A model generated the notes under the pieces. It was not told where the DNA came from. It ran no database searches and saw nothing but the letters and a program-made list of their open reading frames with translations. A program made the position numbers and the translations under genes. From Candidatus Saccharimonadota bacterium (GTDB lineage: Bacteria > Patescibacteriota > Saccharimonadia > Saccharimonadales > Saccharimonadaceae), in the NCBI RefSeq assembly GCF_025273655.1, contig NZ_CP045921.1, positions 180,001 to 212,000 on the forward strand: a DNA stretch of 32,000 nt. Direction: 5' to 3'. Shown piece by piece: positions 2,254 to 30,647 of this stretch; position 1 is the stretch's first letter; each line of letters opens with the position of its first letter.

Positions 2254-2850
2254 ATGACTAAAGAGCGACCGATAGTATGGGTGGACATGGATAATACTAT
2301 ATATGATTTTGATGCGGCTATACTTACACATATCCCTGCAGAGCTGCATGTCGAGCGTGCAAACTTCCATATCGTTGATGATTATTCTCAAGAGCTACGT
2401 ACTACTATTCAAGATATATATAATGCACCAGACTTTTTCCATGGCCTGCATCTTATCGAGGGGGTAAAGGAGTCGTGGCAAGCTATGATTGATGCGGGTT
2501 ATGATCCAAGAATCTTATCTGCTCCTGTAAGTAGCAACTCGATGTCTATTGAAGGTAAGCGGGCGGCACTTGAGCGCGATATGGTGCCAGAATTTGGGCC
2601 TTCTATTTTAGACGATGCTCGATTTGACAAGGACAAGTGGAAATACGACGGCGTAGCATTGTTCGATGATCGGCCGACTGTCGGCGTGAACCCGGAGAGT
2701 GGAGAAGCGCCTTGGGAACATATACTGTATGGGTGGGCTCATCTGTCAGAAGTGCCAATGTCGCGAGCAGCGTTTCGGCTCCTCTCGTGGTATAACTCAA
2801 AAGATACCATACGTATTCTCGATACTGTTCAAGATCTACGGAGTGTTTAG
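2254..2850 (+). CDS. HAD-superfamily 5'(3')-deoxyribonucleotidase-like protein (NT5C-like)
   Basis: N-terminal VWVDMDNTIYDF (DxDxT HAD motif I); size and layout like NT5C family; GAGGAG SD. Confidence 0.6.
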   Translation: MTKERPIVWVDMDNTIYDFDAAILTHIPAELHVERANFHIVDDYSQELRTTIQDIYNAPDFFHGLHLIEGVKESWQAMIDAGYDPRILSAPVSSNSMSIEGKRAALERDMVPEFGPSILDDARFDKDKWKYDGVALFDDRPTVGVNPESGEAPWEHILYGWAHLSEVPMSRAAFRLLSWYNSKDTIRILDTVQDLRSV

Positions 2851-2882
2851 ATGTGCGCTCGTCTTGAGTTTTGCAGCTGTAG

Positions 2883-2888
2883 TATAAT
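2883..2888 (+). promoter_or_regulatory. -10 box TATAAT 6 nt upstream of ATG 2895 (leaderless-type arrangement)
   Basis: TATAAT-caaatc-ATG, no SD. Confidence 0.4.
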
Positions 2889-2894
2889 CAAATC

Positions 2895-3485
2895 ATGCCT
2901 CGCAAACACAAAAATGATCCCACCAAGGCTTTTCCTGGCCAACGCGACGGCGAAGAGCTGATTCTCGTGTTTCGTCGTCATATGATTGCCATGCGCAAAG
3001 GCTTCTATATGCTGCTGATACCGCTAGTGATCACGTGTATTCCACCGCTGATCTGGCAGACGCAGCTTGAGTTATTCCTGTTGCCACTGGGTGGGTTTGT
3101 GCTCGGGCTTATCCTTTTCGCGTACCAGTACATCATGTGGTATTTCACGGTGTTTATAGTGACGGATCAGCGTATTCGCCAAGTAACGCAACACGGCTTC
3201 TTCGGTAGTGATGTCGTAGAGCTCAAACTGTCCAAAATCCACAACATAAGCTATAATATACCAGGAATGAGCGGGGAGCTTTTCGGCTTCGGTACAATCG
3301 TCATCCAGACCTATGTGGGGGATTTGACGATACGAAACGTGGAGCACCCGGAGAAGATATACAACCTCCTTCAAGACGCAGTCGAGGAGGCAGAACGAGG
3401 AGTAAATGAAGAAACTTACGTCGAAACTGAAGCGCTCAAAGCAGAGCGAGAAGCCGAGTCGGATCACCAACGAAACGGTCGCTGA
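2895..3485 (+). CDS. Membrane protein with bacterial PH (bPH_2/YdbS-YdbT-like) domain
   Basis: Two TM helices followed by FTVFIVTDQRIRQVTQHGFFGSDVVELKLSKIHNISY... pattern typical of bPH domain proteins. Confidence 0.6.
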   Translation: MPRKHKNDPTKAFPGQRDGEELILVFRRHMIAMRKGFYMLLIPLVITCIPPLIWQTQLELFLLPLGGFVLGLILFAYQYIMWYFTVFIVTDQRIRQVTQHGFFGSDVVELKLSKIHNISYNIPGMSGELFGFGTIVIQTYVGDLTIRNVEHPEKIYNLLQDAVEEAERGVNEETYVETEALKAEREAESDHQRNGR

Positions 3486-4485
3486 GCATCGTGAGCGTAT
3501 CTTGGCGGGTGGTCGCCGGTTTAAATACCCAGTACAATATACCAAACACCGCTTGGTATGGACAGCAATTGCTATTGGTACAGTGGTGCTGGTGCTGTTT
3601 CTCGCGGTCTCATGGTGGCAACTGTACAAGTCTCAGACTACTGATAGCTTCTATTACCGTATTACGCGCGTTGTGCCACTGCCTGTCGCGCAGGTAGACG
3701 GTGAGTCTGTCAAATACGGCGACTATCTCTTGAATTACAAGATGTCGGAGACGTATCTTGATACTGCCGAGAAAGCAAGTGAGGCCCAGTATGCGGGCGG
3801 CGCGGGCAGCAAGAGTGTCTATGACTACTACAAGGCTCAGGCGATGCAAAACGCCGTGATCGATACCTACGCGCAGAAGCTCGCCAAAGAAAATGGTATT
3901 ACCGTCACGGATCAGCAGGTCAACGACGCTATCAGGGCACTCATACAGACATCCTCGGGACAGTCGGAGATTAGTCAAGAAGTGATTAATCGTTCAGTTG
4001 AGCAGTTGTACGGTCTTTCGCCTTCGGAAAATCGCTACTACTTACGAGAGAGTCTCTTGCGGCAGGCTGTCGCCTATAAGGTAGACAACACTGCAAAAAG
4101 CACGACCGATGATATTAAGGCGATTCTCGACAAAGATCCTGGCAAAAGCTTCGACGAAATCGCGGCAAATTACCGGGGTTCGCCGACAGGAGTGCAGACA
4201 TTGACCTCTGGTTGGGTGAAGAAAGACAACAAAGACGGGGGGCTTGCTGCTGCCGCTGCCAAATTGCAAAAAGGCGAGATGGCTGGTCCGATCAAACCAC
4301 TCAGCGGCGATGGTTATTATTTTGTGCGCCTGCTCGAGGCTAACAACCAGGAAGAGATCAATTATCAGCTCATCAAGGTGCCACTTAAAGAATTCAAACA
4401 GCAGATTGATAATCTTAAGCAGTCTGGTAAGGTGACATATTATATCGCTGTACCAGATGCGAAGCCGCAAATCCAAACCAAATAA
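3406..4485 (+). CDS. Membrane-anchored SurA/PpiD-like chaperone (SurA N-terminal-like plus degenerate parvulin-like C-terminus)
   Basis: Basic N-terminus, one TM helix, then SurA_N-like region. AGGAG 5 nt upstream of ATG 3406 supports this start, giving an 80-nt overlap with the previous gene. Confidence 0.55.
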   Translation: MKKLTSKLKRSKQSEKPSRITNETVAEHRERILAGGRRFKYPVQYTKHRLVWTAIAIGTVVLVLFLAVSWWQLYKSQTTDSFYYRITRVVPLPVAQVDGESVKYGDYLLNYKMSETYLDTAEKASEAQYAGGAGSKSVYDYYKAQAMQNAVIDTYAQKLAKENGITVTDQQVNDAIRALIQTSSGQSEISQEVINRSVEQLYGLSPSENRYYLRESLLRQAVAYKVDNTAKSTTDDIKAILDKDPGKSFDEIAANYRGSPTGVQTLTSGWVKKDNKDGGLAAAAAKLQKGEMAGPIKPLSGDGYYFVRLLEANNQEEINYQLIKVPLKEFKQQIDNLKQSGKVTYYIAVPDAKPQIQTK

Positions 4486-4497
4486 AGGAGGGAAATT

Positions 4498-5094
4498 ATG
4501 GCCTACACATTACCAACGCTTGGATATGAGTATGACGCACTGTCTCGCAGCATTAGTGCAGACATCATGCAGCTCCATCACAGCAAGCACCATCAGACGT
4601 ACGTAGACAAGCTCAATACGGCACTCGAGGGCAAGAGTGTGCCTGATTCGCTTGAGAGGCTTCTGAGTGACTTAGAGAGCGTGCCAGAGGACGTGCGAAC
4701 AGCAGTGCGCAACAACGGTGGCGGACACTATAATCATTCACTGTTCTGGCAGTTCATGAGCCCCTCTGGCGGCGGTGAGCCGACTGGCGATCTCGGCGCG
4801 GCGATTACCGAGAAATATGGTAGCTTTCAGGCGTTTGTGGATAATTTCAGTGCGCAGGCGGCAGGGCTGTTTGGCAGTGGCTGGGTGTGGTTGCAGCCAG
4901 ATCTGAGTCTAGCAGCCTTGCCTAATCAAGACTCGCCGATTATGTCTGGAGGCGAGGCACCGATCCTTGGTCTCGATGTTTGGGAGCACGCCTACTACCT
5001 AGACTATCGAAACGTTCGCGCCGATTATATCAAGGCGTGGTGGGATGTTGTCGACTGGCAAGCTGTCGCTGAGCGCTATCAGCACGCTAAATAA
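4498..5094 (+). CDS. sodA: Fe/Mn superoxide dismutase
   Basis: LPTLGYEYDALSRSISADIMQLHHSKHHQTYV and DVWEHAYYLDYRN signatures; AGGAGG SD. Confidence 0.95.
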   Translation: MAYTLPTLGYEYDALSRSISADIMQLHHSKHHQTYVDKLNTALEGKSVPDSLERLLSDLESVPEDVRTAVRNNGGGHYNHSLFWQFMSPSGGGEPTGDLGAAITEKYGSFQAFVDNFSAQAAGLFGSGWVWLQPDLSLAALPNQDSPIMSGGEAPILGLDVWEHAYYLDYRNVRADYIKAWWDVVDWQAVAERYQHAK

Positions 5095-5101
5095 GTAGTA
5101 T

Positions 5102-6964
5102 CTATCTGGCGTGATGAATTGTCATGCTATTATCTTCGTTGTATTCATAACTATCCTCAGTATCAGTGTCTGGGGTCAGCTGCTCGGTACTTGGTGCTAC
5201 GATGTCTTGATATAGAGCTCCCGGTGTGTTTTGTGGCGATATGTCAGGGGGTTGCGAGACATTCGCCGGATCTGGAGTGATTGGCTCCACGATAGGTGGG
5301 GCGGCGGCTGTTGTTATCGGGGCTGCCGTATAGCTGTTTTGATCCATCTCCTGGGGTACAGAGGCAGGAGTGCTCCACATATCAAGAGGTTCTTCTATTG
5401 CCTCTGTTGGGGCCATGGGTATTGCTGCTGGGTCGAGGTACGATTCGGATTGTGAAGTATATGTCGGTGCAGCGTAGGACTGAGGAGGCTGGTAGGTCAT
5501 TGTTTCTGGCGTTCCTGGTGACGCGAACGACTGTTCGATTTGTTGGATGGACGTATCCGTTAGTGGCGCTACTGCTGTCGGCTGGGTATAAGTGGTATAG
5601 TCATGCTCGAGAACTGACTCATAGCCGGCAGCGGCTTGCGTGGCGCGGTGCCGTCTCCAGAGCAGTAGCACCGCAACACCTGCAGTGACGATGAGGCTAG
5701 TGAGTACGAGGATGATGATAGGCCATGCCGGCTGGCTATCTGTGGTCGGTGATGTAGGAGTAGTAGTAAGTTTGACAGTAATAATTTGGGCATCTGGTGT
5801 TGCGCCTGCAGTAAAATCAATCTTTTTGACTACAAACGACTGCGAGGTGGTGAGCGCTCCTGTCTTGAGCTGCATTGTGTAGTTTCCTGGCATTAGCGTG
5901 AGAGCTACCTCACCTTTGCGGGTTGTTGTGTAGCTGCCGTCTTTACCTTTTAGTGAGATGTGAGCGTCGGCGACGGGGGTTGTACCCTGCGTGATTCGTA
6001 GAATTACAGGATACGCTTTGGTGGTGAAGCTGCCAGTTTTTGTCACACTGACATCCGATGCGTTTTTTGCATCAATTTCATAGAAGTAGATATTACCAAG
6101 TTGCAAATTTTTCAACGTTGCTGAGTGCACCTCGCTATCGCTGGTAACGTCACTGGTAAGTTCGAGTGCGTCTACACTGACGCCATAGCGTATGCTTGTC
6201 GTCGCGGCGTCTTGAGTGTGCCATGTGATTTCAGCGGTATCGTATGCTGCTGCTGCAATGTCATCAGTGATACTTGGCGGATTTGGCGTCACTGCAACCG
6301 TGGGAGCTGGGGATGATGTCGCCTGTGGGGTTTGGGCGGCTGTGGGGGTAGTTTTTGGTGCGCTTGAGGGTGCAGGAGTACTAGTGCTCGGTGTGTTGTT
6401 GGCGGGGGTGCTAGGTGCGGGGGTAGTTGGCGCTGGTGCGGGAGTGATGCAGTTTGGCGGGGTGCCAGTCTGACCTGCTGGACATGTCGGTGTCGCGATA
6501 GTGAATGTGGCGGGTTGCCGAGTTGTTGGTCCGTCATTGATAGTCGTGTTTGTGGTGAAGTTCAGTGTAGGGGTTCCAGTAGTGAGGGCGCGAAACGTAA
6601 TGGTGAAGATCTTCTGATTGTTGACGGCTTGGCTGGGGCACATGAAGCGCGAGTAGGCTACCGTGCCATTACTAATAGAAGGATCGCTACCCCCGAGAGC
6701 ACCTCCGGAACTGCTGGCCGCTGTTGCTTGCAAAATACCGGTTGGGTAAGTGACATTGATAGTTGCTCCGCCACAGAACGATGTGTTGGCCGGCACGCTT
6801 GCGCGAACTTCGACCGTAAACGTTTGCCCTGGTGCATAGGTGGCACTGGCAGGTGAAAAATAAATCGTCCCTTGCACTGCATGCACCGGTGTCGTCGTGA
6901 CTACGTATAGAAACACACCGAAGGCGGCGAATATCGGGAGTGCGAGCTTGCAGAAATGTTTCAT
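5102..6964 (-). CDS. Type I membrane surface protein: signal peptide, cohesin-like domain, Pro/Thr linker, FN3-like and carboxypeptidase-regulatory-like beta-sandwich domains, TM helix, long disordered cytoplasmic tail
   Basis: N-terminal hydrophobic signal; GTIYFSPASATYAPGQTFTVEVRA (cohesin-like); PAPAPTTPAPSTPANNTPSTSTPAPS linker; TM WPIIILVLTSLIVTAGVAVLLLWRR; domain calls are by resemblance only. Confidence 0.7.
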   Translation of the reverse strand: MKHFCKLALPIFAAFGVFLYVVTTTPVHAVQGTIYFSPASATYAPGQTFTVEVRASVPANTSFCGGATINVTYPTGILQATAASSSGGALGGSDPSISNGTVAYSRFMCPSQAVNNQKIFTITFRALTTGTPTLNFTTNTTINDGPTTRQPATFTIATPTCPAGQTGTPPNCITPAPAPTTPAPSTPANNTPSTSTPAPSSAPKTTPTAAQTPQATSSPAPTVAVTPNPPSITDDIAAAAYDTAEITWHTQDAATTSIRYGVSVDALELTSDVTSDSEVHSATLKNLQLGNIYFYEIDAKNASDVSVTKTGSFTTKAYPVILRITQGTTPVADAHISLKGKDGSYTTTRKGEVALTLMPGNYTMQLKTGALTTSQSFVVKKIDFTAGATPDAQIITVKLTTTPTSPTTDSQPAWPIIILVLTSLIVTAGVAVLLLWRRHRATQAAAGYESVLEHDYTTYTQPTAVAPLTDTSIQQIEQSFASPGTPETMTYQPPQSYAAPTYTSQSESYLDPAAIPMAPTEAIEEPLDMWSTPASVPQEMDQNSYTAAPITTAAAPPIVEPITPDPANVSQPPDISPQNTPGALYQDIVAPSTEQLTPDTDTEDSYEYNEDNSMTIHHAR

Positions 6965-10350: not shown

Positions 10351-10643
10351 TCCTTTGGGTGAGGCTGATTTGAGTCTTTATGTGTCCTCGAAGTGTCGTC
10401 TACTTCACGTTCGACGATGATTGAGCATTCTGTAACAAGTGCGGCAATTGCGCCGACAGCTGCTAGTACAGGTGCGAGTATGGCACCAACGACACCAATG
10501 GTGAGCGGTAGCTCGACGAGTTGCTTGTCATCTTTGTTTTTGATGATGATACGTCGCACGTTACCTTCGCCGACCAGCTCTTTTACTTTGCCAATGAGTG
10601 CGTCACCGCTGACGTTGAATTCTTCGCGAGTTGTTTTGGTCAT
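10347..10643 (-). CDS. DUF4342-like small protein with C-terminal hydrophobic segment
   Basis: MTKTTREEFNVSGDALIGKVKELVGEGNVRRIIIKNKDDKQLVELPLTIGV... resembles DUF4342. ATG 10643 preferred over the track start 10748, whose extension is hydrophobic and overlaps the divergent gene start. Confidence 0.6.
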   Translation of the reverse strand: MTKTTREEFNVSGDALIGKVKELVGEGNVRRIIIKNKDDKQLVELPLTIGVVGAILAPVLAAVGAIAALVTECSIIVEREVDDTSRTHKDSNQPHPKE

Positions 10644-10727
10644 ACTTCTAGTATAGCGCTCTGGAAATATGTTTACAAAACAAGCGGAGCGGATTATGCT
10701 AGTGGCACAGGAGAACAAAACACAAAC

Positions 10728-12416
10728 ATGAAAAAGAAATGGGACCACGAAGTAGACTACCTGGTGGTAGGCACTGGCGCTGCAGGCCTCAGTGCGGCGA
10801 TTACAGCCAAGCGCAATGGACTCGACACACTAGTGATTGAGAGCACCGATAAATGGGGTGGCACGACTGCCGTATCTGGTGGTGGCCTATGGATGCCAAA
10901 CAATCCACTCATGCAAGACGGACGCGTACATGACTCGATTGACGAAGCGTTTGAATATATGGATCAGACGATTGGCAATGTTGGTCCGTGGACTAGCGAC
11001 ACACGCAAACGTGCATTTCTGATGGGGATCGACCATTATGTCAAGATGTTGACCGAGGAAGGTGTGCACTGGATTCGAGCCAAAGATTATCCGGATTACT
11101 ACCCAGATCTACCGGGTGGACGTATCGGTCGTGGTATTGAGGTGAAGCCATACAACACTAGGCGGTTGGGTAAATGGCGCAAGACCCAGCGCTCGAGCAT
11201 TCCGGCGCCTATCATGACAGACGACATGTGGCAGCTGACTCGTGCGTGGTCGACACCAGACGGCTTTCTGCGTGGTGCGCGGTTTGTGTTTCGTATGCTG
11301 GGCGGCTATGCGACAGGTCAGCTCAAAGCTGGTATCGGCATGGCGTTTACTGGCTCACTTATGGAGATTGTCCAGCGCCAGAACACGCCGGTGTGGCTTA
11401 AGTCACCACTTACAGATCTCGTTATCGAAGATGGTCGTGTCGTGGGCGGTGTAGTGAAGAAGGGTCGTAAGACGGTGCGAGTGCACGCTGCAAAAGGGGT
11501 CATGCTTGGTGCCGGTAGATTCGCGCACAACACTGAGTGGCGTATGAAGTATCATGGGGTACCAGGTTGGAGTAGCGCACCAGAAGGTCAAAACGGTGAA
11601 GGTATTGCTATCGGCGCTAAGGCTGGTGGTGCGCTCGGTATGATGGACGATGCCTGGTGGGGAGGCACGACTGCTAATACAAATGGTAGTCCCTATATGC
11701 ACGGGTTTATCCTGAACGAGCGCTCTGATCCGTGGAGTATTGTGGTCGATCAGCAAGGTCATCGCTAGCTCAACGAGTCGGAGAGCTACATCGACTTCGG
11801 GCATCATATGTTGGAGCGTGACAAGACCGTTCCCTCGGTACCATCGTGGATTATCTTTGATCATCGCCATACGACACATTTCCTCAATTCGGCACTTATG
11901 GTGCCGGGGGCAAAGAAGAAGCTTGCGGCGATGGGTGAGCTCGTAGAAGCTAAGACGCTCGACGAGTTGGTAAAGCTGATGAAGGTGAATCAGGCAACAT
12001 TTGACGCCACGATCAAGCGGTTTAACGAATTTGCGAAGAACGGTGTCGATGAAGATTTTCAGCGTGGTCGCACTGCGTATGATCGTTACTACGGTAATCC
12101 GCTCGTCAAACCAAACCCAAACCTTGGTGCAATCGAGAAAGGGCCGTTCATTGCACTCAAAATCTACCCTGGTGACCTTGGTACAAAGGGTGGTCTCGTG
12201 ACAAACGAGTGGGCACGCGTCCAGCGCGAAGACGGTTCGGTGATCGAGGGTCTCTACGCGGCCGGTAACAACACGGCGAGTGTGATGGGGCACACGTATC
12301 CTGGCCCAGGCAGCACGATTGCGCCTGCGAGCGTGTTTGGCTATTTGGCCGCACTGCACGCGAGTCAGCCGCCTCGTCCGCTCGATACAATTGATGCCAC
12401 TGCGGCATCTGAGTAG
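10728..12416 (+). pseudogene. KstD-like FAD-dependent oxidoreductase (3-oxosteroid 1-dehydrogenase / fumarate reductase flavoprotein family) interrupted by one in-frame TAG at 11766..11768
   Basis: N part DYLVVGTGAAGLSAAI...GGTTAVSGGGLWMPNN (FAD fold); C part GDLGTKGGLVTNEWARV...LYAAGNN...GPGSTIAPASVFG. Track ORFs 10521..11768 and 11808..12416 share one frame, and sequence reads through as ...QQGHR*LNESESYIDFG... Confidence 0.7.
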
Positions 12417-23186: not shown

Positions 23187-23580
23187 GGGGCTGACATAGC
23201 TTTCGACGATAGGAACTTAACAGGGTATTTTGCAAGTCGACCGTACACGTTACAGTACATTTTTAATTGCAAAAGATAATTTTGCTCGCGTTCAGAACGT
23301 ATTTGCTTCGGCATTTGCACCTGCACGCGTTCTTGCGTAACTAAACGCAGGCGTTCGAATTTGCTAGGTGACATCGCAAATCTCGAGTGTTATATTTATG
23401 TCGCTCGCTGCGTATAGGGAAGTGGCCTATGCGCGGGACTTTTGCCACGTAACGCTGACTAATCTTTCCGACTAGATTTTGAGTTAGGCTGTGTTATAAA
23501 ACGAATCAATCTAGCCTAAGCTTGTAGACGAATACCATGTTACCTTTCGGACCGGGGGGCAGTACCCCGCAGCTCCACCA
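23187..23580 (+). ncRNA. ssrA: tmRNA (SsrA), one-piece
   Basis: 5' GGGGCTGACATAGCTTTCGACG and 3' GGACCGGGGGGCAGTACCCCGCAGCTCCACCA (G3:U acceptor pair). Tag frame GCA 23269 to TAA 23338..23340 encodes AKDNFARVQNVFASAFAPARVLA. Confidence 0.85.
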
Positions 23581-23593
23581 TATAGAAAAAGAA

Positions 23594-23618
23594 CCTCCCG
23601 CTACGGGAGGATTTTTGT
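23594..23618 (+). terminator. Intrinsic terminator after ssrA
   Basis: CCTCCCG...CGGGAGG hairpin followed by ATTTTTGTTT. Confidence 0.7.
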
Positions 23619-23867
23619 TTGTGACAGCTCGTAGATAAGTGAAACGACCGCCTGCGAGGAACGGTCGTTTCGGAGTGTGGAGTTTTTAGAGTGTGCTGTT
23701 TGTTTTTGGCTCCTGCACAAGTTTTTTATTCAGAAGCTACCCCTATAATATGATGCCAAAGCGCTTGTGTCAATGATTTTGTGAGAGTTTTTTTGACAAA
23801 GTTTTTTACCGTGTGGAAAAGCCATATATGGTGCATATCGTGACCAATGAGCCACCATGTACGTAAG

Positions 23868-24560
23868 TTAAAGGTCGAAAATAAAATCCCAGCCAAACTC
23901 TGCGTATATTGAGCGCGCCTGTGGGCGTTCAGCAGGGGAGTATTTGGTGGCAAGTTTACGCGTGAAGTACTCTACTTCTGTGACAGAAAGCTGTGGCCAG
24001 TACTGTACGCCAGCTGCGATGCGCGCGGCGGATTCTGCAGTTGGTTGCCAGTCAAATTTTGCCATACGGCGGCAGTTTTCTAGGCAGGCATTTACATGTT
24101 CGCTGGCGGTGGGCGTGCGACCATCTGCAATATCGTACATATTCATACGGAGTGTCCTAGTGGTAGCGTCTTGAAAGCCGAAGTTGGTAGGGTCATGGAG
24201 GCGTCCGTCGCTGGCGAGATAGACCGAATCGATGCTGTTGAGGTAGTAGAGAAGGAAGTTGTCGACGGTATGGTGGACTCCGTAGACAAGCTCGGCATTC
24301 CATATGCCTTCGATATCCCACATCGCTTGATTCGCAGGATGCACGATATCGAGCGCTTCGCGCAGAATTTGCTGAGCGTCGCGGTAGTGTACCTGGCCGA
24401 CGTAGGAGATGTCGATATCGGCAGTTGCACCGCCTGCGATGAGTGTGCGTGTCCAGCCTGCCGCAATGGCGGGTTCGCGGACGTCGTGGGTCTCCAGATA
24501 TGCGAGCACCTCGGTAGCTTGCCGAACGTCTTCTTGTGCTTCGATGGCGGCGATGTTCAT
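23868..24560 (-). CDS. Small nucleotidyltransferase-like protein (poly(A) polymerase / CCA-adding head-domain resemblance)
   Basis: AAGWTRTLIAGGATADIDISY resembles the GGxVRDxLLGxxxxDxDx NTase head motif. ATG 24560 preferred (putative TTGCAC-17 nt-CATACT promoter ends 7 nt upstream); assignment tentative. Confidence 0.45.
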   Translation of the reverse strand: MNIAAIEAQEDVRQATEVLAYLETHDVREPAIAAGWTRTLIAGGATADIDISYVGQVHYRDAQQILREALDIVHPANQAMWDIEGIWNAELVYGVHHTVDNFLLYYLNSIDSVYLASDGRLHDPTNFGFQDATTRTLRMNMYDIADGRTPTASEHVNACLENCRRMAKFDWQPTAESAARIAAGVQYWPQLSVTEVEYFTRKLATKYSPAERPQARSIYAEFGWDFIFDL

Positions 24561-24567
24561 ACTATAT

Positions 24568-24596
24568 AGTATGTGTCTTGGTGGTGATTGGTGCAA
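24568..24596 (-). promoter_or_regulatory. Putative promoter TTGCAC-17 nt-CATACT, 7 nt upstream of ATG 24560 (leaderless arrangement)
   Basis: Minus strand TTGCAC (24591..24596) and CATACT (24568..24573); no SD. Confidence 0.3.
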
Positions 24597-24732
24597 TATC
24601 AAGCGCATACAAATCATAAATGTTGTAAATATAAATATGTAGATAAAAAATCAACATACAAAAATATATCTGTTATTATCACAAATTGAACAAATAGTTT
24701 ATTTACCACAACGAAATATGATGCACGGAGTA

Positions 24733-24761
24733 TTGACAAACCATAAGTAATTTGCTACAGT
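24733..24761 (+). promoter_or_regulatory. Sigma70-type promoter TTGACA-17 nt-TACAGT in the AT-rich intergenic region
   Basis: TTGACA 24733..24738, exact 17-nt spacer, TACAGT 24756..24761. Confidence 0.5.
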
Positions 24762-24939
24762 GAATCTAAGCTTTTACAAACATAAAAAGCACAAAAACCC
24801 TTAACAATTTGGCATCTTTTTCTCACAAGTAACATCAAAACTCTGGTGTGATTTGACGAAGTAACTGGCGGTCTCTATGCCTGCATCTTGCACTCATGGG
24901 GCTGCCTGTAAGCTCCGTCAAATCTTTGATGTTGAGCGC

Positions 24940-25054
24940 ATGTACTGACGTATATAGTACTGGTACAGCCTTGTACCTGGTAAAACCTTGTTTAGCATAG
25001 ACAAGCAACTACCGGGTACAAAGCGAGGAACGTACTATATAAACCGCAGTACAT
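24940..25054 (+). other. 115-nt extended imperfect hairpin (candidate structured RNA or protein-binding inverted repeat)
   Basis: Paired blocks: 24940-47/25047-54 (8 bp), 24949-50/25045-46, 24951-60/25032-41 (10 bp), 10x10-nt internal loop, 24971-82/25010-21 (12 bp, one G:U), 4x4 loop, 24987-91/25001-05, 9-nt loop. Contains 7 GTAC tetramers. Confidence 0.5.
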
Positions 25055-25213
25055 AAGCAAATATGCTCGGGAACTTTCCTGAGCGGTCAGTCGTCTCGAG
25101 TGGTAGTCGGAATCTGGATCGCCCGCCCTTTCATTTACTTTTAGCGGTGGTTGTCGGCCATTTTCCATACAGGCTACTACTCAGACACCCTTGGTATCCT
25201 GTATACTACCTGT

Positions 25214-25600
25214 ATGCTTTCTAAAATTCTTGTGGTAATCGGTGTCATAGCCGCTGTAGCGCTTGGCTACGTTCTCAATACTACGTCTCCTGTCGAGGCG
25301 GGTGCCACTGGGGTGCTTGCGGTATTTTTACTTTCGTATATTGTGTCAGTCGTCGTACTGACTTTTTTTGTTTTTTGGACATATAAACTCATGCTGCACG
25401 TTTTCTACAGTGACCGCACTGGTCACGCGGGTCAGCAGCTAAGTTTGCGCAAAGCATATTATTATGCGTCGATTTTGGCACTCGGACCAGTCATTTTGGT
25501 GAGTCTGCGCTCAGTAGGGCAGGCTGGTGCTGTGCAGCTTTTCTTGGTGTTGGCGCTTCTGGCACTCGGGTGTCTCTACGTATCGCGTCAAACGTCATAA
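25214..25600 (+). CDS. Small integral membrane protein (4 predicted TM helices)
   Basis: MLSKILVVIGVIAAVALGYV... hydrophobic segments. ATG 25214 preferred over TTG 25151; TATACT (25202..25207) 6 nt upstream, no SD. Confidence 0.6.
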   Translation: MLSKILVVIGVIAAVALGYVLNTTSPVEAGATGVLAVFLLSYIVSVVVLTFFVFWTYKLMLHVFYSDRTGHAGQQLSLRKAYYYASILALGPVILVSLRSVGQAGAVQLFLVLALLALGCLYVSRQTS

Positions 25601-25642
25601 AAACGCCAATTTTTCGCTTATGGTTGTGATATACTAACAGGT

Positions 25643-26071
25643 ATGCAGCCAGAGTTATCGCCGGGTCCACGTTCGTACGAACAGCAACCAGTGCCACAGG
25701 TGGAATCGTATGATGTTCCGCCAAACTTTGCATCTCCCGAGACATTTCCAAGCGCTTCTCCTGAGCGCGTAGAACAGCGTAGCGCTGTTGAGTTGGCTCC
25801 ACCGCCACCCGCAGCAGTTCCAATGCCTGCGATGCCATTGCCGCCTGTCCCGCAAACACCGGTGGCAATACCTGCGCCAGACCCAAGTACGGCAAATCCG
25901 ATTGCCGCAAACGACGACGATGTGATCGAAAAAGAATGGGTGGATCGGGCGAAGCAGGTGATTATCCAAACAAAAGATAATCCCTACGCTCGTGAAAAAG
26001 CGATTGGTGAATTACAGCGCGATTATCTAGCAAAACGTTACGGGCGCCAGATTGGTGCAAGTGATGACTAA
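25643..26071 (+). CDS. Proline-rich protein with helical charged C-terminal domain, function unknown
   Basis: N-half is about 30% Pro (APPPPAAVPMPAMPLPPVPQTPVAIPAPDP). C-terminus is DDDVIEKEWVDRAKQVIIQTKDNPYAREKAIGELQRDYLAKRYG. TGaTATACT (25627..25635) 7 nt upstream of the ATG. Confidence 0.55.
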   Translation: MQPELSPGPRSYEQQPVPQVESYDVPPNFASPETFPSASPERVEQRSAVELAPPPPAAVPMPAMPLPPVPQTPVAIPAPDPSTANPIAANDDDVIEKEWVDRAKQVIIQTKDNPYAREKAIGELQRDYLAKRYGRQIGASDD

Positions 26072-26086
26072 AGGAGCGGTTGAAAT

Positions 26087-29044
26087 ATGTTAGGGGCAAT
26101 CATCGGGGTATTTGCTATACTCGTGATCGCCGGTGTAGTAGTCGTTGTCTGCTACACGATTTATCAGGGGATGATGCGCGAAGCCAAAAACTACGAGCGT
26201 GGACTCAAGATGGTTCCAATGTTGATACACCTACCGCCGACTAGTGAGGATTTGGAACGCGGTGGCCGCGATGAGCGTGAAGTAACAGATGAACTTTTGT
26301 CTCAGGCTCAGGTAATGTATAACATCATTGCGAGTACGGCTCAGCGTGGCTTTAAGCATCGCATGTACGGGCAGCGCCATGTCTCGTTCGAAATTGTTGC
26401 CAAAGAAGGCCTTATCTATTATTACGCGGTAGTTCCGATTGTATTGGTAGATGTGGTGCGGCAGGCGGTTATCGCAGCATATCCCTCGGCTCGTCTCGAG
26501 GAGGTTGAAGAGCACAATATATTTACGAAGGATACGCACGCCAGCTCAGTGATTGGTGGCGAGTTCTCCCTGAAGAAAGAGTATGTCTATCCGATAGCTA
26601 CTTACCAGGAGACGAAGCGAGATGCCTCGCGCGCCATCTTAAACGCACTGTCGACAATTGGGCGCGAAGATGGTGTAGGGATTCAGATACTGATGCGGCC
26701 TGCCAGTGAGGGTTGGACTAAGAACTCTCAGCGCACGGTTGAGCGCGTCAAGAAGGATCGTGCGGCTGGTAAGCACGGAGGTTTTGGTGGCGGAGCAGCT
26801 GTGAAAGATATTGCCGGTGCGCTATGGAAGCCGCCATCCGCCGATGACCATAGTGATGAGAAAAATATCGATCGCCAGCTCACAACAAGCGAGCAGCAGG
26901 GCATTGAGGCAATAGAGGAGAAGATGCGGTATCCAGGTTACGAGATGCTGATTAGGGTTGTTGTATCTTCATCTACGGCTACTCGATCTCAGACGCTACT
27001 AAAGAATATTGTAGCTGCTTATTCACTGTTTGATTCACCGACCAACAATGGTTTTGTGTTTACGCCAACTCGTAATGTCGATGAGCTTGTGACCTCATAT
27101 ATATTTCGGTTTTTTCCGCAAAGTCTCCGTCGTAATATTCTCAACACTGTAGAACTCGCAACACTTTTCCATCTGCCGGATCAAAAGAATATTCCTACGG
27201 CGCAGGTGAAGCGTCAGCTGAGCAAGCAAGTCGATGGTCCGACGGAGATTATGGAAGAAGGCTTCTTGATTGGCTACAACGAATTTCGCGGTGTGAAAAA
27301 GCCTATTCGCTTGAGTACTAATGACCGCCGCCGCCACTTGTATATGATTGGCCAGACGGGTACTGGTAAGTCGAAGTTCCTTGAGAACCTTGCCTATCAG
27401 GACATGATGGACGGCAAAGGCTTTGCGTTTATCGATCCGCACGGAGATTCGGCGGAGATTTTGATGGGTGCGGTACCAAAAGAGCGTGTCGAAGACGTTA
27501 TCTATTTTAATCCGGCTGATATGGATAACCCGATTGGCCTGAATATGTTTGAGTTCAATACGCCGGATCAGAAGGACTTCTTGGTACAGGAAGCGATTAA
27601 CATGCTCTATGGACTGTACGATCCGGGGCATACAGGTATTGTGGGGCCGCGTCTCGAGCATATTTTCCGTAATGCCGCGCTGCTGCTGATGAGTGACCCG
27701 GAGGGCGGGACGTTTATTGACATACCGAAACTACTCGTCGATGCCGAGTTTATGAAGAGTAAGCTCAAGTACGTTACTGATCCGACAGTGCTAGAATTTT
27801 GGACCAAAGAATGGCCGTCGTCGCAAAAATCAAGTGAGGCGGGCGAGCTAGTGAGTTGGGTGGCTTCAAAGTTCGGTCCGTTTATCAGCAACGATGCGAT
27901 GCGTAATATCATCGGTCAGACTAAATCTGGCTTCAATCTGCGCGATATTATGGACAACAAGAAGATCCTCATCGTCAACTTGTCAAAGGGTAAGATGGGT
28001 GAGCTCAACTCAAAGCTACTCGGTATTATCTTCGTGATGAAGTTTCAGGCAGCAGCCATGGCGCGTGCAGATATACCCGAAGATCAACGTGAAGACTTCA
28101 GTCTGTATGTGGACGAGTTCCAGAACTTCATGACCGAGAGTTTCGAGTCGATTTTGTCTGAGGCTAGGAAGTATCACCTTAGTTTGATCATGGCTAATCA
28201 GTTCATGACACAGCTTACTGATAAAATTCGTGAAGCGATCATCGGTAACGTTGGTACGGTGGTGTCGGGACGTATAGGTGTGACCGATGCAGAGCTGCTG
28301 GTGAAGAAGTTTGAGCCTGTGTTCACGATTGATGATCTGACAAAAATGCCGAACTTTCAGGGTATTGCAAGTGTGATGATCAATAATACGCCATCGGCGC
28401 CGTTTAGCATGTCGTTTACACCGCCACTCGCCAAGTCAAATGATAAGCTGGCTGACGCAATGAAGAAGCTGTCGGCTACAAAACACGGACGCCCTCGAGC
28501 AGAAGTGGAGGCGGCTATTTCAAAACGTATCACAACACAGCCAAAACCTGCCATGGGCGTTGCACCAGGTACCGGCAATAGGATAGGAGCTCCCGGTGGC
28601 GCTAAGCCGGGCGGAGGTTCGTTCCTTGATGAGTGGCTTGCGAAGCGGCAACAAGCGGGGGCAGGCCGTCCTGGGGTAATTCGGCAACCGGGCCAAGTCC
28701 CTCCAGCGGGTGTACCAGTGCAGCCGTCACCGCTCCAGACTCAGCCAATGCAGTCTGCTGTGATACAAGCACCACCGCAGCCCGCCGTGCAGCCTACTGC
28801 GGCATATCCTCCTTTGCAGCCATTTGTTCAGTCGGGGCAGCCTGGCCAGTTCTTGTCGCAAACTCAGTCCATCCCGACGTCGGTGCCACCTGCCGGTTAC
28901 CCGCCGGTCCAGAGTGTTCAGAATCCATTCGCTACGTCCTCTGCCACTGCACTACCTCAACAGCCAGCAGCCCAGACGGCATCACCACAGGCACTGCAGC
29001 CTCGCCAGGGAGGCGATGGTGAGGTCTCGGTCAAAATTCGCTAG
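26087..29044 (+). CDS. Membrane-anchored FtsK/HerA-superfamily P-loop ATPase, type IV coupling protein (VirD4/TraD/TraG)-like, with Pro/Gln-rich C-terminal tail
   Basis: N-terminal TM helix; about 400 aa unrecognised; Walker A MIGQTGTGKSKF, FIDPHGDS, Walker B-like FSLYVDEFQNF, LIMANQF; last roughly 190 aa low-complexity P/Q/G; AGGAG SD. Confidence 0.8.
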   Translation: MLGAIIGVFAILVIAGVVVVVCYTIYQGMMREAKNYERGLKMVPMLIHLPPTSEDLERGGRDEREVTDELLSQAQVMYNIIASTAQRGFKHRMYGQRHVSFEIVAKEGLIYYYAVVPIVLVDVVRQAVIAAYPSARLEEVEEHNIFTKDTHASSVIGGEFSLKKEYVYPIATYQETKRDASRAILNALSTIGREDGVGIQILMRPASEGWTKNSQRTVERVKKDRAAGKHGGFGGGAAVKDIAGALWKPPSADDHSDEKNIDRQLTTSEQQGIEAIEEKMRYPGYEMLIRVVVSSSTATRSQTLLKNIVAAYSLFDSPTNNGFVFTPTRNVDELVTSYIFRFFPQSLRRNILNTVELATLFHLPDQKNIPTAQVKRQLSKQVDGPTEIMEEGFLIGYNEFRGVKKPIRLSTNDRRRHLYMIGQTGTGKSKFLENLAYQDMMDGKGFAFIDPHGDSAEILMGAVPKERVEDVIYFNPADMDNPIGLNMFEFNTPDQKDFLVQEAINMLYGLYDPGHTGIVGPRLEHIFRNAALLLMSDPEGGTFIDIPKLLVDAEFMKSKLKYVTDPTVLEFWTKEWPSSQKSSEAGELVSWVASKFGPFISNDAMRNIIGQTKSGFNLRDIMDNKKILIVNLSKGKMGELNSKLLGIIFVMKFQAAAMARADIPEDQREDFSLYVDEFQNFMTESFESILSEARKYHLSLIMANQFMTQLTDKIREAIIGNVGTVVSGRIGVTDAELLVKKFEPVFTIDDLTKMPNFQGIASVMINNTPSAPFSMSFTPPLAKSNDKLADAMKKLSATKHGRPRAEVEAAISKRITTQPKPAMGVAPGTGNRIGAPGGAKPGGGSFLDEWLAKRQQAGAGRPGVIRQPGQVPPAGVPVQPSPLQTQPMQSAVIQAPPQPAVQPTAAYPPLQPFVQSGQPGQFLSQTQSIPTSVPPAGYPPVQSVQNPFATSSATALPQQPAAQTASPQALQPRQGGDGEVSVKIR

Positions 29045-29094
29045 TAAGACTACAGCAACTGGGACTATCTAGACGCTACTTTTCGGGAGGGTTA

Positions 29095-29472
29095 CTATCT
29101 TTTACGACCACCTGTGATGAGTAGGTGCGTATAATCAATTACGATGCCAATGACCCAGCCTATCGCAAATGCGACAAGGGATTCAGAGCCAGAGAGAGTG
29201 TAGCCGTAATGCTTGGCGATGAGATACATACTCAGGGTCACGCAGATAGATACAACTGAGCCATAGAGAATGGCGTTTGGTCGTGCAACTGTGATGCCGA
29301 GAGCATTGCTGGCGATATCGAGGGGGCGCCAGTGGATGAGATGACTCCATGCCCGAGCCGGTCTGCGCATATGTGTGCGAGCTTGGTGCATAGTGGTGGC
29401 AAAAGACTGTGCTGCGCGCGACGAAGGTGAAGCTTGTCGAGGTGAGCCGGTTGAGGTTAGTTGCTTTTTCAT
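29095..29472 (-). CDS. Small membrane protein (about 3 TM helices) with basic N-terminal region
   Basis: Start overlaps the upstream stop as ATGA (29469..29472); hydrophobic C-terminal two thirds. Confidence 0.5.
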   Translation of the reverse strand: MKKQLTSTGSPRQASPSSRAAQSFATTMHQARTHMRRPARAWSHLIHWRPLDIASNALGITVARPNAILYGSVVSICVTLSMYLIAKHYGYTLSGSESLVAFAIGWVIGIVIDYTHLLITGGRKR

Positions 29473-30647
29473 GAAAGTGCTCCTGTGTTAAGGTCGTGAC
29501 GGATAAGGCGTAGTTCTTCTCGCTGTTGTCGAGCGCGTGCGTAGAAAAAGAGCGCGATTGTCACCACTGTGACACCTGTGGCAAGGGAAGTGCTAGCAGC
29601 TACTGGGGGAAGTTGGCGAGCAATGACTTCGACTTGCTTGGCCGCCGGGCATGCAACTGGTACATTGAGCGTGTTGTCGAGTGAATTGGTGATCAGGCAG
29701 TCATATGAGGCGGGGTTACTGTCGCCACGCCCTGTGGCCGGAATGGCCGCTGCGACACGAACAGTGAACTGTTTTGAAATTTTTTGGCCTGGCACAAGCT
29801 GAGCAGCAGGCCATACGAGCACATTTGTCGCGGTGTCGAGCGCACCACCACCGTTATCGGTCAGTGTCGCATATTCGAGTACGTCACCGAGTCTATCCTC
29901 TATCGCCACGTCTATCGCCGTATCTCCGGTGTTTTGAGCGGTGAGCTGATATACAATACGATCCGAAGGCTGGGCGGTTGTGCGGTTGGCTGGCTGAGAC
30001 TGGGTTGCGTTGATCGCTGTCTTACTGTAGGTAATCTGGCTCTCATTTGCCTGCGTACCGTTCGGCAGCTTATGAACGACAAGATTTCCCGATCCAGTCA
30101 GAACTGCAAATTCCCCAAACGTATCAGAGACTGCAGTAAGTGCAGGATATGTGCTGCCATGTTGGCGACTAAAGCTATCGTTGTCGTAGAGTGACAAGGG
30201 CGTGAAGTAGACGATACCCTGGCCGCCAGCGGCTTTTGAGTACGGATATGTACTAACACCGTCTTGAGAGCCGAAGAGGGGGGTGCGGCTTACTACGTAC
30301 AACGAGGTATCTGAGCGGATGGTTTGGCTGTGGAGGGAGGCAAGGTCGTGGCGACTGATGCCGATACTGCTGTAGATGTCGCGTAGGTTCTGTGCGTTTG
30401 TGTCGTAGGCTGCCAATAGTTCGGACGGAGCTGTAATACCTCCATACACTAGATCGTTCTCGCTAGTGGGATTGGCAGATTCGGGCGGATAGAGCAAGAC
30501 GAAGGCCTGTACGCCAACCGCAAGTACTGCGGCAATAAGACCGAGCTTTCGTAAAAAAACCTCTCGTTTGAGACGACGATCGTATGCACTGAGCTCACCC
30601 ACCAAACTCGGGCTATACGAGAGACCTGCGACTAATTTTCGAAACAT
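29469..30647 (-). CDS. Surface protein with DUF11/CARDB-like repeat domain, TM helices near both termini
   Basis: N-terminal anchor LGLIAAVLAVGVQAFVLLY. IVYQLTAQNTGDTAIDVAIEDRLGDVLEYATL...VWPAAQLVPGQKISKQFTVRV (DUF11-like). C-terminal LATGVTVVTIALFFYARAR followed by a charged tail. Confidence 0.65.
   Translation of the reverse strand: MFRKLVAGLSYSPSLVGELSAYDRRLKREVFLRKLGLIAAVLAVGVQAFVLLYPPESANPTSENDLVYGGITAPSELLAAYDTNAQNLRDIYSSIGISRHDLASLHSQTIRSDTSLYVVSRTPLFGSQDGVSTYPYSKAAGGQGIVYFTPLSLYDNDSFSRQHGSTYPALTAVSDTFGEFAVLTGSGNLVVHKLPNGTQANESQITYSKTAINATQSQPANRTTAQPSDRIVYQLTAQNTGDTAIDVAIEDRLGDVLEYATLTDNGGGALDTATNVLVWPAAQLVPGQKISKQFTVRVAAAIPATGRGDSNPASYDCLITNSLDNTLNVPVACPAAKQVEVIARQLPPVAASTSLATGVTVVTIALFFYARARQQREELRLIRHDLNTGALS

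Follow-up and report, generated by a model that had tools for sequence, protein, structure and literature searches.

Introduction

Type IV coupling proteins (T4CPs) such as VirD4, TrwB, TraD, DotL and Cag-beta are membrane-tethered motors with Walker A and Walker B motifs and an all-alpha insertion, of which several have small dedicated partners (CagZ, TraM, IcmSW) and of which TraD and DotL bind adaptors through a C-terminal extension. They are the nearest sequence relatives of the motor of a 985-residue ATPase that we describe here, encoded together with two small upstream genes, here called tm128 and pro142, in a 32,000-nt stretch of a Saccharibacterial chromosome (contig NZ_CP045921.1, positions 180,001 to 212,000; hereafter the window). 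The tm128 gene is GII36_01150 of Candidatus Mycosynbacter amalyticus, at 100% identity. The ATPase resembles T4CPs in its motor, insertion, membrane tether and C-terminal extension, and pro142 may be compared with their small partners, but T4CPs have two transmembrane (TM) helices where it has one, they lack the extra domain of about 370 residues (DUF8128) that it carries between anchor and motor, and they are carried on mobile elements, whereas its gene is chromosomal, core and essential, with no relaxase or type IV secretion system (T4SS) genes as neighbours.

The second close relative is VirB4 (TrwK of R388; the CagE/TrbE family), which is likewise built of two tiers, an N-terminal alpha/beta domain followed by a C-terminal ATPase. 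VirB4 was the best structural match of our full-length model and the only significant match of the isolated N-domain model, and the N-terminal TM helix of the ATPase recalls VirB3-VirB4 fusions; however, no VirB4 sequence family matches the ATPase, whose motor sequence is T4CP-like. The archaeal Ced and Ted DNA import systems and HerA likewise combine a VirB4/HerA-like membrane ATPase with small membrane proteins and no full conjugation apparatus, but the present locus has no CedA-like, VirB6-like or pilin gene, and neither a HAS-barrel nor a NurA partner was found. FtsK and SpoIIIE belong to the same superfamily and also sit in the membrane by an anchor, and FtsK linkers typically contain a low-complexity segment rich in Pro and Gln, but the ATPase lacks their 4TM, alpha and gamma domains. 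As for HerA and the MADS protein mad8, DUF87 is matched at the cut-off, but there are no NurA, Sir2, DUF4297 or MADS partners and the locus is core, not a variable island.

A study of Southlakia epibionticum ML1 found the T4SS genes SEML1_0006-0019 to be essential and noted that neither a coupling protein nor a relaxase could be recognized among them (Wang et al. 2023, PMC10633639), and the Saccharibacteria T4SS cluster encodes a separate bona fide VirB4 together with TrsD (PMC12102498). We found no paper discussing the DUF8128 family (PF26449), and a Nat Commun 2025 cryo-electron tomography (cryo-ET) paper held nothing on the ATPase locus. An initial annotation of the window had joined tm128, pro142 and the ATPase with two convergent downstream genes, tm125 and a gene for a DUF11-like surface protein, into one undescribed envelope translocation or host-contact apparatus. 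Here we report that tm128, pro142 and the ATPase gene make up a real, conserved and essential unit, in which an ATPase of a known superfamily has an unusual architecture and context. The word 'undescribed' still holds for its function in the papers found, but not for the family, which is catalogued as DUF8128 and whose orthologue has been scored essential (PMC10633639).

Results

Conservation and fitness of the tm128-pro142-ATPase unit

We compared the locus with those of 166 relatives, 80 of them species-representative loci of Saccharibacteria and 86 from other members of the candidate phyla radiation (CPR). The three genes were collinear in 80 of 80 Saccharibacterial loci, with median gaps of 43 nt between tm128 and pro142 and of 8 nt between pro142 and the ATPase gene, which bears out the link between the ATPase and its two small upstream neighbours that had initially been drawn from the window. 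Close homologues of the ATPase were all Saccharibacterial. A search with the N-terminal domain retrieved 1,388 cluster representatives (50% identity) at E<=1e-3, and Kuenenbacteria, Doudnabacteria, Parcubacteria and further CPR groups encode full-length relatives (800-890 aa), each with DUF8128 and T4CP-type domains.

Fitness calls were taken from the transposon-insertion sequencing (Tn-seq) of S. epibionticum ML1 (Wang et al. 2023, PMC10633639, Table S1), with orthology argued from annotation, domain boundaries and synteny, the latter being a 10-gene collinear block common to the window and ML1 (M50 protease, L20/L35/IF-3, yifB and onwards to gyrB). Within this block yifB (SEML1_0138, minus strand) was non-essential (NE) and gyrB (SEML1_0145, plus strand) essential (ES). 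SEML1_0140-0142, all on the plus strand, have the sizes, order and block position of tm128, pro142 and the ATPase gene, and we take them as orthologues by synteny. SEML1_0140 (117 aa) was called NE/GD/GD, with GD denoting a growth defect, SEML1_0141 (139 aa) was called GD/ES/ES, with 0 of 9 input insertions recovered, and SEML1_0142, a 1019-aa 'TraM recognition domain-containing protein' listed as core and Patescibacteria-enriched, was called ES/ES/ES. The upstream pair thus shares a fitness phenotype with the ATPase, as the initial annotation had led one to ask. In contrast, SEML1_0143 (193 aa) and SEML1_0144 (535 aa, DUF11), the minus-strand counterparts of tm125 and the DUF11 protein, were both NE. 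The text of PMC10633639 makes no mention of SEML1_0140-0142.

A coupling-protein-type motor with a predicted VirB4-like N-terminal domain

The P-loop motifs first noticed in the sequence, GQTGTGKSKF, FIDPHGDS and LYVDEFQNF, were all found in the ATPase, at residues 422-431, 448-455 and 673-681, respectively. Among 70 Saccharibacterial homologues, with a mean column identity of 64%, the Walker A and Walker B motifs were invariant, and we judge the P-loop motor to be probably active. The window ATPase passed Pfam TraG-D_C (26.1 bits, cut-off 22) and matched DUF87, the HerA central domain, at the cut-off (23.2 bits), and CPR relatives passed TrwB_AAD_bind, which in them spans residues 427-726, as well as T4SS-DNA_transf (both E 8e-12, 45 bits). 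A phmmer search of the PDB found DotL (1.4e-5) and TrwB (1.8e-4). Matches to FtsK_SpoIIIE in Pfam were marginal (E 0.0045-0.06 in relatives), and the VirB4 sequence families CagE_TrbE_VirB (PF03135), AAA_10 and TraC were not matched, save for a marginal match to AAA_10 in one of eight relatives (E 0.004). In an AlphaFold2 (AF2) model the stretch that separates Walker A from Walker B contains seven helices (residues 493-609), comparable to the all-alpha domain inserted into the nucleotide-binding domain of T4CPs. Judged by its sequence, the motor is of the coupling-protein type (VirD4/TrwB) and belongs to the VirB4/VirD4 branch of the FtsK-HerA superfamily, so that the Pfam and PDB matches agree with the FtsK/HerA/VirD4/VirB4 clade initially proposed.

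Hydropathy analysis gave one TM helix, at the N-terminus, with a basic stretch (REAKNYERGLK) behind it, and by the positive-inside rule the protein is predicted to be oriented N-out/C-in, with everything beyond the helix, including the tail, in the cytoplasm. The approximately 400 residues that had at first seemed unassignable did give no match when residues 1-400 were searched against a Pfam copy that lacked the PF26449 model, but they correspond to that very family, DUF8128, which is precomputed on all 240 listed homologues. At the other end, a tail of about 190 residues had been described as rich in Pro and Gln, and residues ~791-985 indeed hold 32 Pro and 26 Gln among 195. Within this tail the motif SFLDxWLxKR was conserved at >=90% and the C-terminal consensus was EVSIKLR in the 70 homologues, whereas relatives outside Saccharibacteria, at about 800-890 aa, have no such tail.

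The full-length AF2 model was poor (pLDDT 62.6, pTM 0.44) and was used for architecture-level Foldseek searches only. Its best PDB match was full-length TrwK/VirB4 (E 4e-10, ~800 aligned columns), whereas the T4CPs DotL and Cag-beta aligned over the motor only; the structural comparison suggested at the outset thus gave VirB4 as the full-length match and confined the likeness to T4CPs to the motor. A separate model covered the N-terminal domain (residues 28-405) and drew on an alignment of 89 sequences, distant CPR homologues among them. This model was better (pLDDT 80.8, pTM 0.78), and its significant PDB matches were 10 TrwK/VirB4 chains only (E 5e-6 to 4e-4, TM-score 0.41-0.44, root-mean-square deviation ~7 Å), with the next PDB match at E 0.013. 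From these models DUF8128 is predicted, with moderate strength, to fold like the N-terminal domain of VirB4.

The small upstream partners

Members of the tm128 family are uniformly 128 aa long, and P26, F38, Y42, Y82 and P92 are invariant among them. Of the 242 database matches of this family all named ones were Saccharibacterial, no member was found outside this lineage, and searches of Pfam, NCBIfam and PADLOC gave no match; the family appears to be restricted to Saccharibacteria.

The composition of pro142 matched its first description, a Pro-rich N-terminal half and a charged helical C-terminus, in that a Pro-rich, acidic, low-complexity part precedes a conserved C-terminal helix (EKEWVDRAKQVIIQTKDNPYAREKAIGELQRDYLAKRYG). 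A hidden Markov model (HMM) of this family found the upstream gene of a distant, tail-less CPR locus (L085) at 46.7 bits and E 4e-15. In 58 of the 86 other CPR loci a small charged open reading frame (ORF) lay directly upstream of the ATPase gene, and hardly any of these ORFs had a predicted TM segment. By sequence they formed four main families and a further one, of three loci, that resembles an unrelated gene, and the families tracked the ATPase clades, with homology to pro142 demonstrable only in the family that includes pro142 itself. Because the four families showed no significant similarity to one another when their profiles were compared (probabilities <1%), the sameness of the partner across CPR is positional, with homology not demonstrated, and a DDPY-type motif common to families F1 and F4 is anecdotal. 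We regard pro142 as a putative partner of the ATPase, and the data support a conserved two- to three-gene unit at the cytoplasmic face of the membrane.

Expression signals and the upstream structured RNA

A TAnnnT hexamer ended 5-8 nt before the tm128 start codon in 65 of 78 orthologous loci and before the pro142 ATG in 43 of 43, with Shine-Dalgarno-like 4-mers in 6/78 and 0/43 of these loci, respectively. Since -10-like boxes lie 6-7 nt before the two ATGs and Shine-Dalgarno sequences are rare there, these signals suggest a leaderless tm128 mRNA and a leaderless pro142-ATPase transcript, in the window and across Saccharibacteria. The ATPase gene has a Shine-Dalgarno AAGGAG that overlaps the pro142 stop codon, which would fit co-transcription of pro142 and the ATPase gene as a bicistron, and purine- and G-rich stretches precede the ATPase start in relatives.

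The unusually long non-coding region upstream of tm128 had been described as structured, and it folds with a minimum free energy of -159 kcal/mol against -113.7 +/- 6.2 for shuffles (z = -7.3). When the 446 nt preceding tm128 were folded for the window and for the loci of 79 relatives, the median z was -5.6, with z < -3 in 78/80, and the RNA is conserved in practically all Saccharibacteria. In 51/80 loci a conserved 5' element, AAGCUUUUAcAAAAAcAAAAAGC, lay upstream of tm128 at a distance of 385-580 nt. An alignment of 28 sequences gave 48 consensus pairs, and 37 of these showed compensatory changes; paired cells reached 96.3%, against 81% in shuffles and 30-49% in slid controls, double-change cells numbered 231 against 72, and none of 500 shuffles reached any of these measures. 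Rfam 15, in gathering and E-value modes, returned no family for the window or for the RNA of two relatives, and nothing was found in the literature on covariation of Saccharibacteria non-coding RNA. Because the RNA ends in a long helix and a U-rich tract directly before the -10 box of tm128, we consider a separate RNA gene more likely than a leader. The structure initially noted is therefore real, albeit most likely not part of a tm128 leader, and it may belong to an RNA family not yet described or regulate the ATPase unit in cis.

Three further observations concern this upstream region. A minus-strand small RNA candidate (23590-23773) lies within a block (23580-23833) that was conserved by blastn in most relatives and had no Rfam match; the candidate, with a fold z of -4.6, has a strong promoter TTGACA-17-TATTAT (11/12) at 23773-23745, a C/A-rich body, and a bidirectional terminator (23594-23610) in common with the tmRNA gene. 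A 249-aa ORF (23868-24617, minus strand) had no counterpart in the 80 relatives' loci and no sequence match in Pfam, NCBIfam, PADLOC or the PDB, and it looks like an insertion peculiar to this lineage, with the tmRNA block on one side and the structured RNA on the other. One Saccharibacterium (L168) has no comM, and the 2.4 kb that separate infC from tm128 there (2768-5131) contain no called gene; by analogy with the window this gap is assumed to hold the tmRNA, the conserved block and the structured RNA.

The convergent gene pair

Hydropathy gave tm125 two clear TM segments rather than the three first read, its relatives have a median length of 189 aa, and no family matched it above threshold. 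It overlaps the gene of the DUF11 protein by 4 nt, as seen from the ORF coordinates, in agreement with the ATGA coupling initially noted. The 392-aa protein matched Pfam DUF7927 (31.5 bits) and DUF11 (28.5 bits). Most of its relatives end in ELP[TQHK]TG followed by a TM segment and a basic tail, YARSRQ...EVRLIRR, and the window protein and its closest relatives retain the TM segment and tail with a degenerate motif, QLPPVAAS. The description of a DUF11 surface protein with TM anchors at both ends thus stands for the domain and the N-terminal signal anchor, whereas the C-terminal end (29469-29700, minus strand) is more probably a degenerate cell-wall sorting signal. Although the LPXTG motif is degenerate in the Mycosynbacter clade, the unusually long cytoplasmic tail E[VI]RLIRRxxNxGxI is conserved, which hints at a function beyond sorting.

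Layout and surroundings of the locus

All five ORFs of the initial annotation were present where it had placed them, and their coordinates and those of the associated features are collected in Table 1.

Table 1. Positions, within the window, of the ATPase unit, the convergent gene pair and the associated sequence elements
Feature	Position (nt)	Strand	Description and basis
Promoter of the structured RNA, sigma-70-like, TTGACA-17-TACAGT	24733-24761	+	Sequence
Structured RNA, ~420 nt	24768-25190	+	Fold and covariation; upstream of tm128; ends inferred
-10-like box TATACT	25202-25207	+	TG directly upstream; 6 nt before tm128 ATG
tm128	25214-25600	+	ORF, 128 aa; 4 hydrophobic helices (hydropathy)
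Extended -10-like box TGaTATACT	25627-25635	+	7 nt before pro142 ATG
pro142	25643-26071	+	ORF, 142 aa; Pro-rich and acidic, without TM segments
Shine-Dalgarno AAGGAG of the ATPase gene	26071-26076	+	1-nt overlap with pro142 stop codon
ATPase	26087-29044	+	ORF, 985 aa; N-terminal TM helix, DUF8128, T4CP-type P-loop motor, Pro/Gln tail
N-terminal TM helix, residues ~3-25	26093-26161	+	Hydropathy; helix 2-40 in AF2 model
DUF8128 (PF26449) alpha/beta domain, residues ~30-400	26174-27286	+	Precomputed Pfam on homologues
P-loop motor, residues ~405-790	27299-28456	+	Pfam TraG-D_C and DUF87
Walker A GQTGTGKS	27350-27373	+	Motor motif
All-alpha insertion, residues ~493-609	27563-27913	+	Helices of AF2 model
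Walker B VDEF	28109-28120	+	Motor motif
Pro/Gln/Ala-rich tail, disordered	28469-29041	+	Composition; Saccharibacteria-specific
Tail motif SFLDEWLAKRQQ	28619-28654	+	SFLDxWLxKR conserved in homologues
C-terminal peptide EVSVKIR	29021-29041	+	Conserved motif
tm125	29095-29472	-	ORF, small membrane protein, convergent to ATPase
DUF11/DUF7927 surface protein	29469-30647	-	ORF, 392 aa; N-terminal signal anchor, degenerate LPXTG-type signal

The window as a whole is ordinary housekeeping chromosome, with ndk, sodA, thrS, miaA, the M50 protease gene, RNase P RNA, infC, comM/yifB and tmRNA, and gyrB starting at ~30.8 kb; no island-like anomaly in G + C content was seen in it. It had been stated that no integrase gene was present, but a tyrosine-recombinase gene, probably xerC/D, lies at 415-1365 on the minus strand (Phage_integrase E 5e-44, with a SAM-like N-domain). 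As a further observation, an FAD_binding_2 domain of the fumarate reductase or aspartate oxidase type was split across two plus-strand ORFs, 10521-11768 and 11808-12416 (profile positions 1-286 and 312-414), which may reflect a frameshifted pseudogene or a sequencing error.

Discussion

The reading that we tentatively favour, as possible rather than probable, is that tm128, pro142 and the ATPase constitute the coupling-type motor so far missing from the essential T4SS of Patescibacteria. It is proposed because the essential T4SS of ML1 has no recognizable coupling protein, because the other T4CP-like gene of ML1, SEML1_0293, was NE (PMC10633639 Table S1), and because a published survey found T4CP genes to be commonly encoded away from virB4. 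The t4cp gene of ML1 has been called not essential (Quinonero-Coronel et al. 2025), a remark that fits SEML1_0293 but not SEML1_0142. DUF8128 ATPases are presumably among the VirD4-like homologues counted in PMC12102498, since they are annotated as T4SS coupling-type proteins. Five metagenomic loci (L107, L109, L114, L118 and L129) carried tandem DUF8128 ATPases, of which the downstream copies formed a separate paralogue clade of ~955 aa, and the window ATPase was nearer the main clade (39% identity) than this second clade (34%). The second copies agree with earlier work that counted about two VirD4-like homologues in each Patescibacterial genome, and their clade may be the counterpart of the dispensable paralogue that SEML1_0293 represents in Saccharibacteria. 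An argument from phyletic distribution, with T4CP homologues in 96% of genomes and VirB4 in 80%, was discarded since the same numbers arise from ~80% completeness and two T4CP copies.

Under this T4SS-motor reading, the ATPase would be tethered at the cytoplasmic face of the membrane by its one N-terminal helix, with DUF8128 as a VirB4-N-domain-like tier next to the membrane and the coupling-type motor with its all-alpha insertion beneath, and in Saccharibacteria the Pro/Gln tail would extend as a long, flexible arm ending in a conserved docking peptide. By analogy with its relatives it may form a ring, in which ATP hydrolysis would feed or gate a polymer substrate, DNA or unfolded protein, to a membrane conduit. 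pro142 might bind the motor through its conserved C-terminal helix and act as an adaptor, regulator or substrate, comparable to CagZ for Cag-beta, TraM for TraD or IcmSW for DotL, and tm128 would be a lineage-specific membrane accessory. With the bulk of the ATPase, its tail and pro142 predicted to be cytoplasmic, the host-contact role first suggested for the locus would not be a direct one.

Several findings weigh against the ATPase being the T4SS motor. Ring assembly, the substrate and the interaction with pro142 are all inferred, as is the tie of the ATPase to the T4SS. T4SS components were absent from the 22 most recurrent neighbour families of the 86 other CPR loci, and T4SS genes from the recurrent neighbours of the 166 loci; nor did the window hold relaxase or T4SS (Mpf) genes, and the ATPase is not flanked by VirB3/VirB6 as VirB4 is in the T4SS cluster, its neighbours being comM, tmRNA, gyrB and dnaX. 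Its initial description as an orphan with regard to T4SS and conjugation therefore holds in the window, the 80 Saccharibacterial loci and the 86 other CPR loci alike. Among 5,713 Patescibacterial VirD4-like (T4CP) homologues, 148 lay near virB4 (PMC12102498). The window ATPase fell short of the Pfam cut-offs for T4SS-DNA_transf (19.2 vs 20.1) and TrwB_AAD_bind (18.5 vs 20.5), every NCBIfam T4CP model scored far below its cut-off (SXT_TraD, for example, 42 vs 366), and the two-TM N-terminal domain of T4CPs is replaced by one TM helix and the soluble DUF8128 domain of ~370 aa. The VirB4-like fold, moreover, is that of a predicted structure with a TM-score of ~0.43, and since a sequence profile of the N-domain (50 sequences) found neither VirB4 nor any other match in the PDB, the likeness is one at the level of fold only. 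Finally, the neighbouring replication genes point equally to a housekeeping role in DNA metabolism.

These neighbours lead to the rival that survives best, though we consider it rather unlikely, namely that the DUF8128 ATPase and its acidic partner form an autonomous housekeeping motor acting at the membrane on the cell's own or incoming DNA, independently of the T4SS, either in chromosome handling during replication or budding division or in uptake of host nucleic acid as a source of nucleotides. Co-directional dnaX lay downstream of the ATPase gene in 19 of the 47 CPR loci with enough sequence (L083, L086, L089-L101, L113, L130-L132, L141, L160 and L162), in four of them within 75 nt, gyrB/gyrA lay downstream in Saccharibacteria and in the distant L085, and recR, ybaB and dnaB lay upstream in L086; CPR genomes are small and densely filled with housekeeping genes, however, and such adjacency may be chance or inherited synteny. 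T4CP, FtsK and HerA relatives are established as DNA-dependent translocases, TrwB is among the matches, the family is core and essential in the midst of neighbours that do not recurrently include T4SS genes, and the highly acidic, disordered partner could mimic DNA, yet no DNA-binding domain was identified. The NCBIfam matches to the archaeal DNA-import ATPases CedB and CedD were weak, with scores far under their cut-offs (12.9 vs 700 and 28.6 vs 600, respectively). In ML1 comEC is dispensable, so that transformation-type uptake is not essential there, and the presence of a canonical essential FtsK (SEML1_0096) speaks against a chromosome motor and led us to reject the idea that the ATPase replaces FtsK.

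An unlikely but more far-reaching reading is that DUF8128 ATPases represent a third, CPR-specific VirB4/VirD4 lineage, combining a VirB4-like N-domain with a coupling-like motor and forming, with a fast-evolving acidic partner, an essential T4SS-independent machine. If so, it could for instance be a membrane-tethered motor for nucleic-acid import or chromosome handling, which would compensate for the lacking nucleotide synthesis of these epibionts or serve their unusual budding division.

That all five genes form one self-contained envelope translocation or host-contact apparatus, as the initial annotation had it, is now very unlikely. The genes tm128, pro142, the ATPase gene, tm125 and the DUF11 gene are syntenic in 80, 80, 80, 77 and 74 of the 80 Saccharibacterial loci, the stop codons of the ATPase and tm125 genes lie a median of 16 nt apart, and the DUF11 protein is surface-exposed and adhesin-like. 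However, the unrelated comM is nearly as syntenic (69/80) and gyrB is also directly downstream in the Saccharibacterial loci whose gene calls were read, and because this lineage is highly syntenic throughout, the linkage of the convergent pair carries no functional weight. No tm125-like or DUF11-like family recurs downstream of the ATPase in the 86 CPR loci, where only the upstream partner is retained. The Tn-seq data split the group, with the convergent pair dispensable where ATPase and pro142 are essential, which largely refutes the five-gene proposal. With its Sec-type N-terminus and degenerate sortase signal the DUF11 protein is probably a Gram-positive-type, sortase-type surface protein that would need no dedicated ATPase, and the pair is best seen as a separate, dispensable unit of an ordinary surface protein and a small membrane protein. 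The Pam pilus of M. amalyticus (bioRxiv 10.64898/2026.03.03.709456) was also considered and set aside, being encoded at a different locus beside ATP synthase genes with no ATPase or DUF11 protein mentioned.

It is scarcely credible that the ATPase was left behind or brought in by a mobile element or belongs to a defence system, be it as a decayed conjugative coupling protein or as a HerA/MADS-type anti-phage ATPase. In favour of such an origin, PADLOC mad8 gave the top single HMM score in any library (59 bits, E 1e-16) alongside weak HerA and DndH matches, T4CPs are typical of conjugative elements, and the upstream region holds a lineage-specific ORF as well as a tmRNA gene, a kind of gene into which elements often integrate. 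Against it, the gene was found in all 80 species, at one locus and in collinear order, with the column identity given above, and it belongs to a core and essential family. The locus shows neither relaxase, integrase or MADS/Dnd/Sir2/NurA partner genes nor compositional anomaly, and neither a patchy strain-variable distribution nor flanking attachment sites were seen. A role in defence was rejected because the mad8 and HerA matches come without partner genes and the gene is core and essential.

Patescibacteria, or CPR, account for a large share of bacterial diversity, and in the only genome-wide fitness map available for them the T4SS is essential yet without a recognisable coupling protein. 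The locus described here supplies a near-universal, essential ATPase of the coupling family that has been counted but never examined, and the VirB4-like N-domain of the essential copy, its small acidic partner and its setting among replication genes make the question of its function testable in two cultivable systems, S. epibionticum with its genetics and M. amalyticus with cryo-ET and proteomics. Whether the ATPase should prove to be the motor of the T4SS or a new membrane motor for DNA or protein, either outcome would fill a gap in our understanding of ultrasmall epibiont life.

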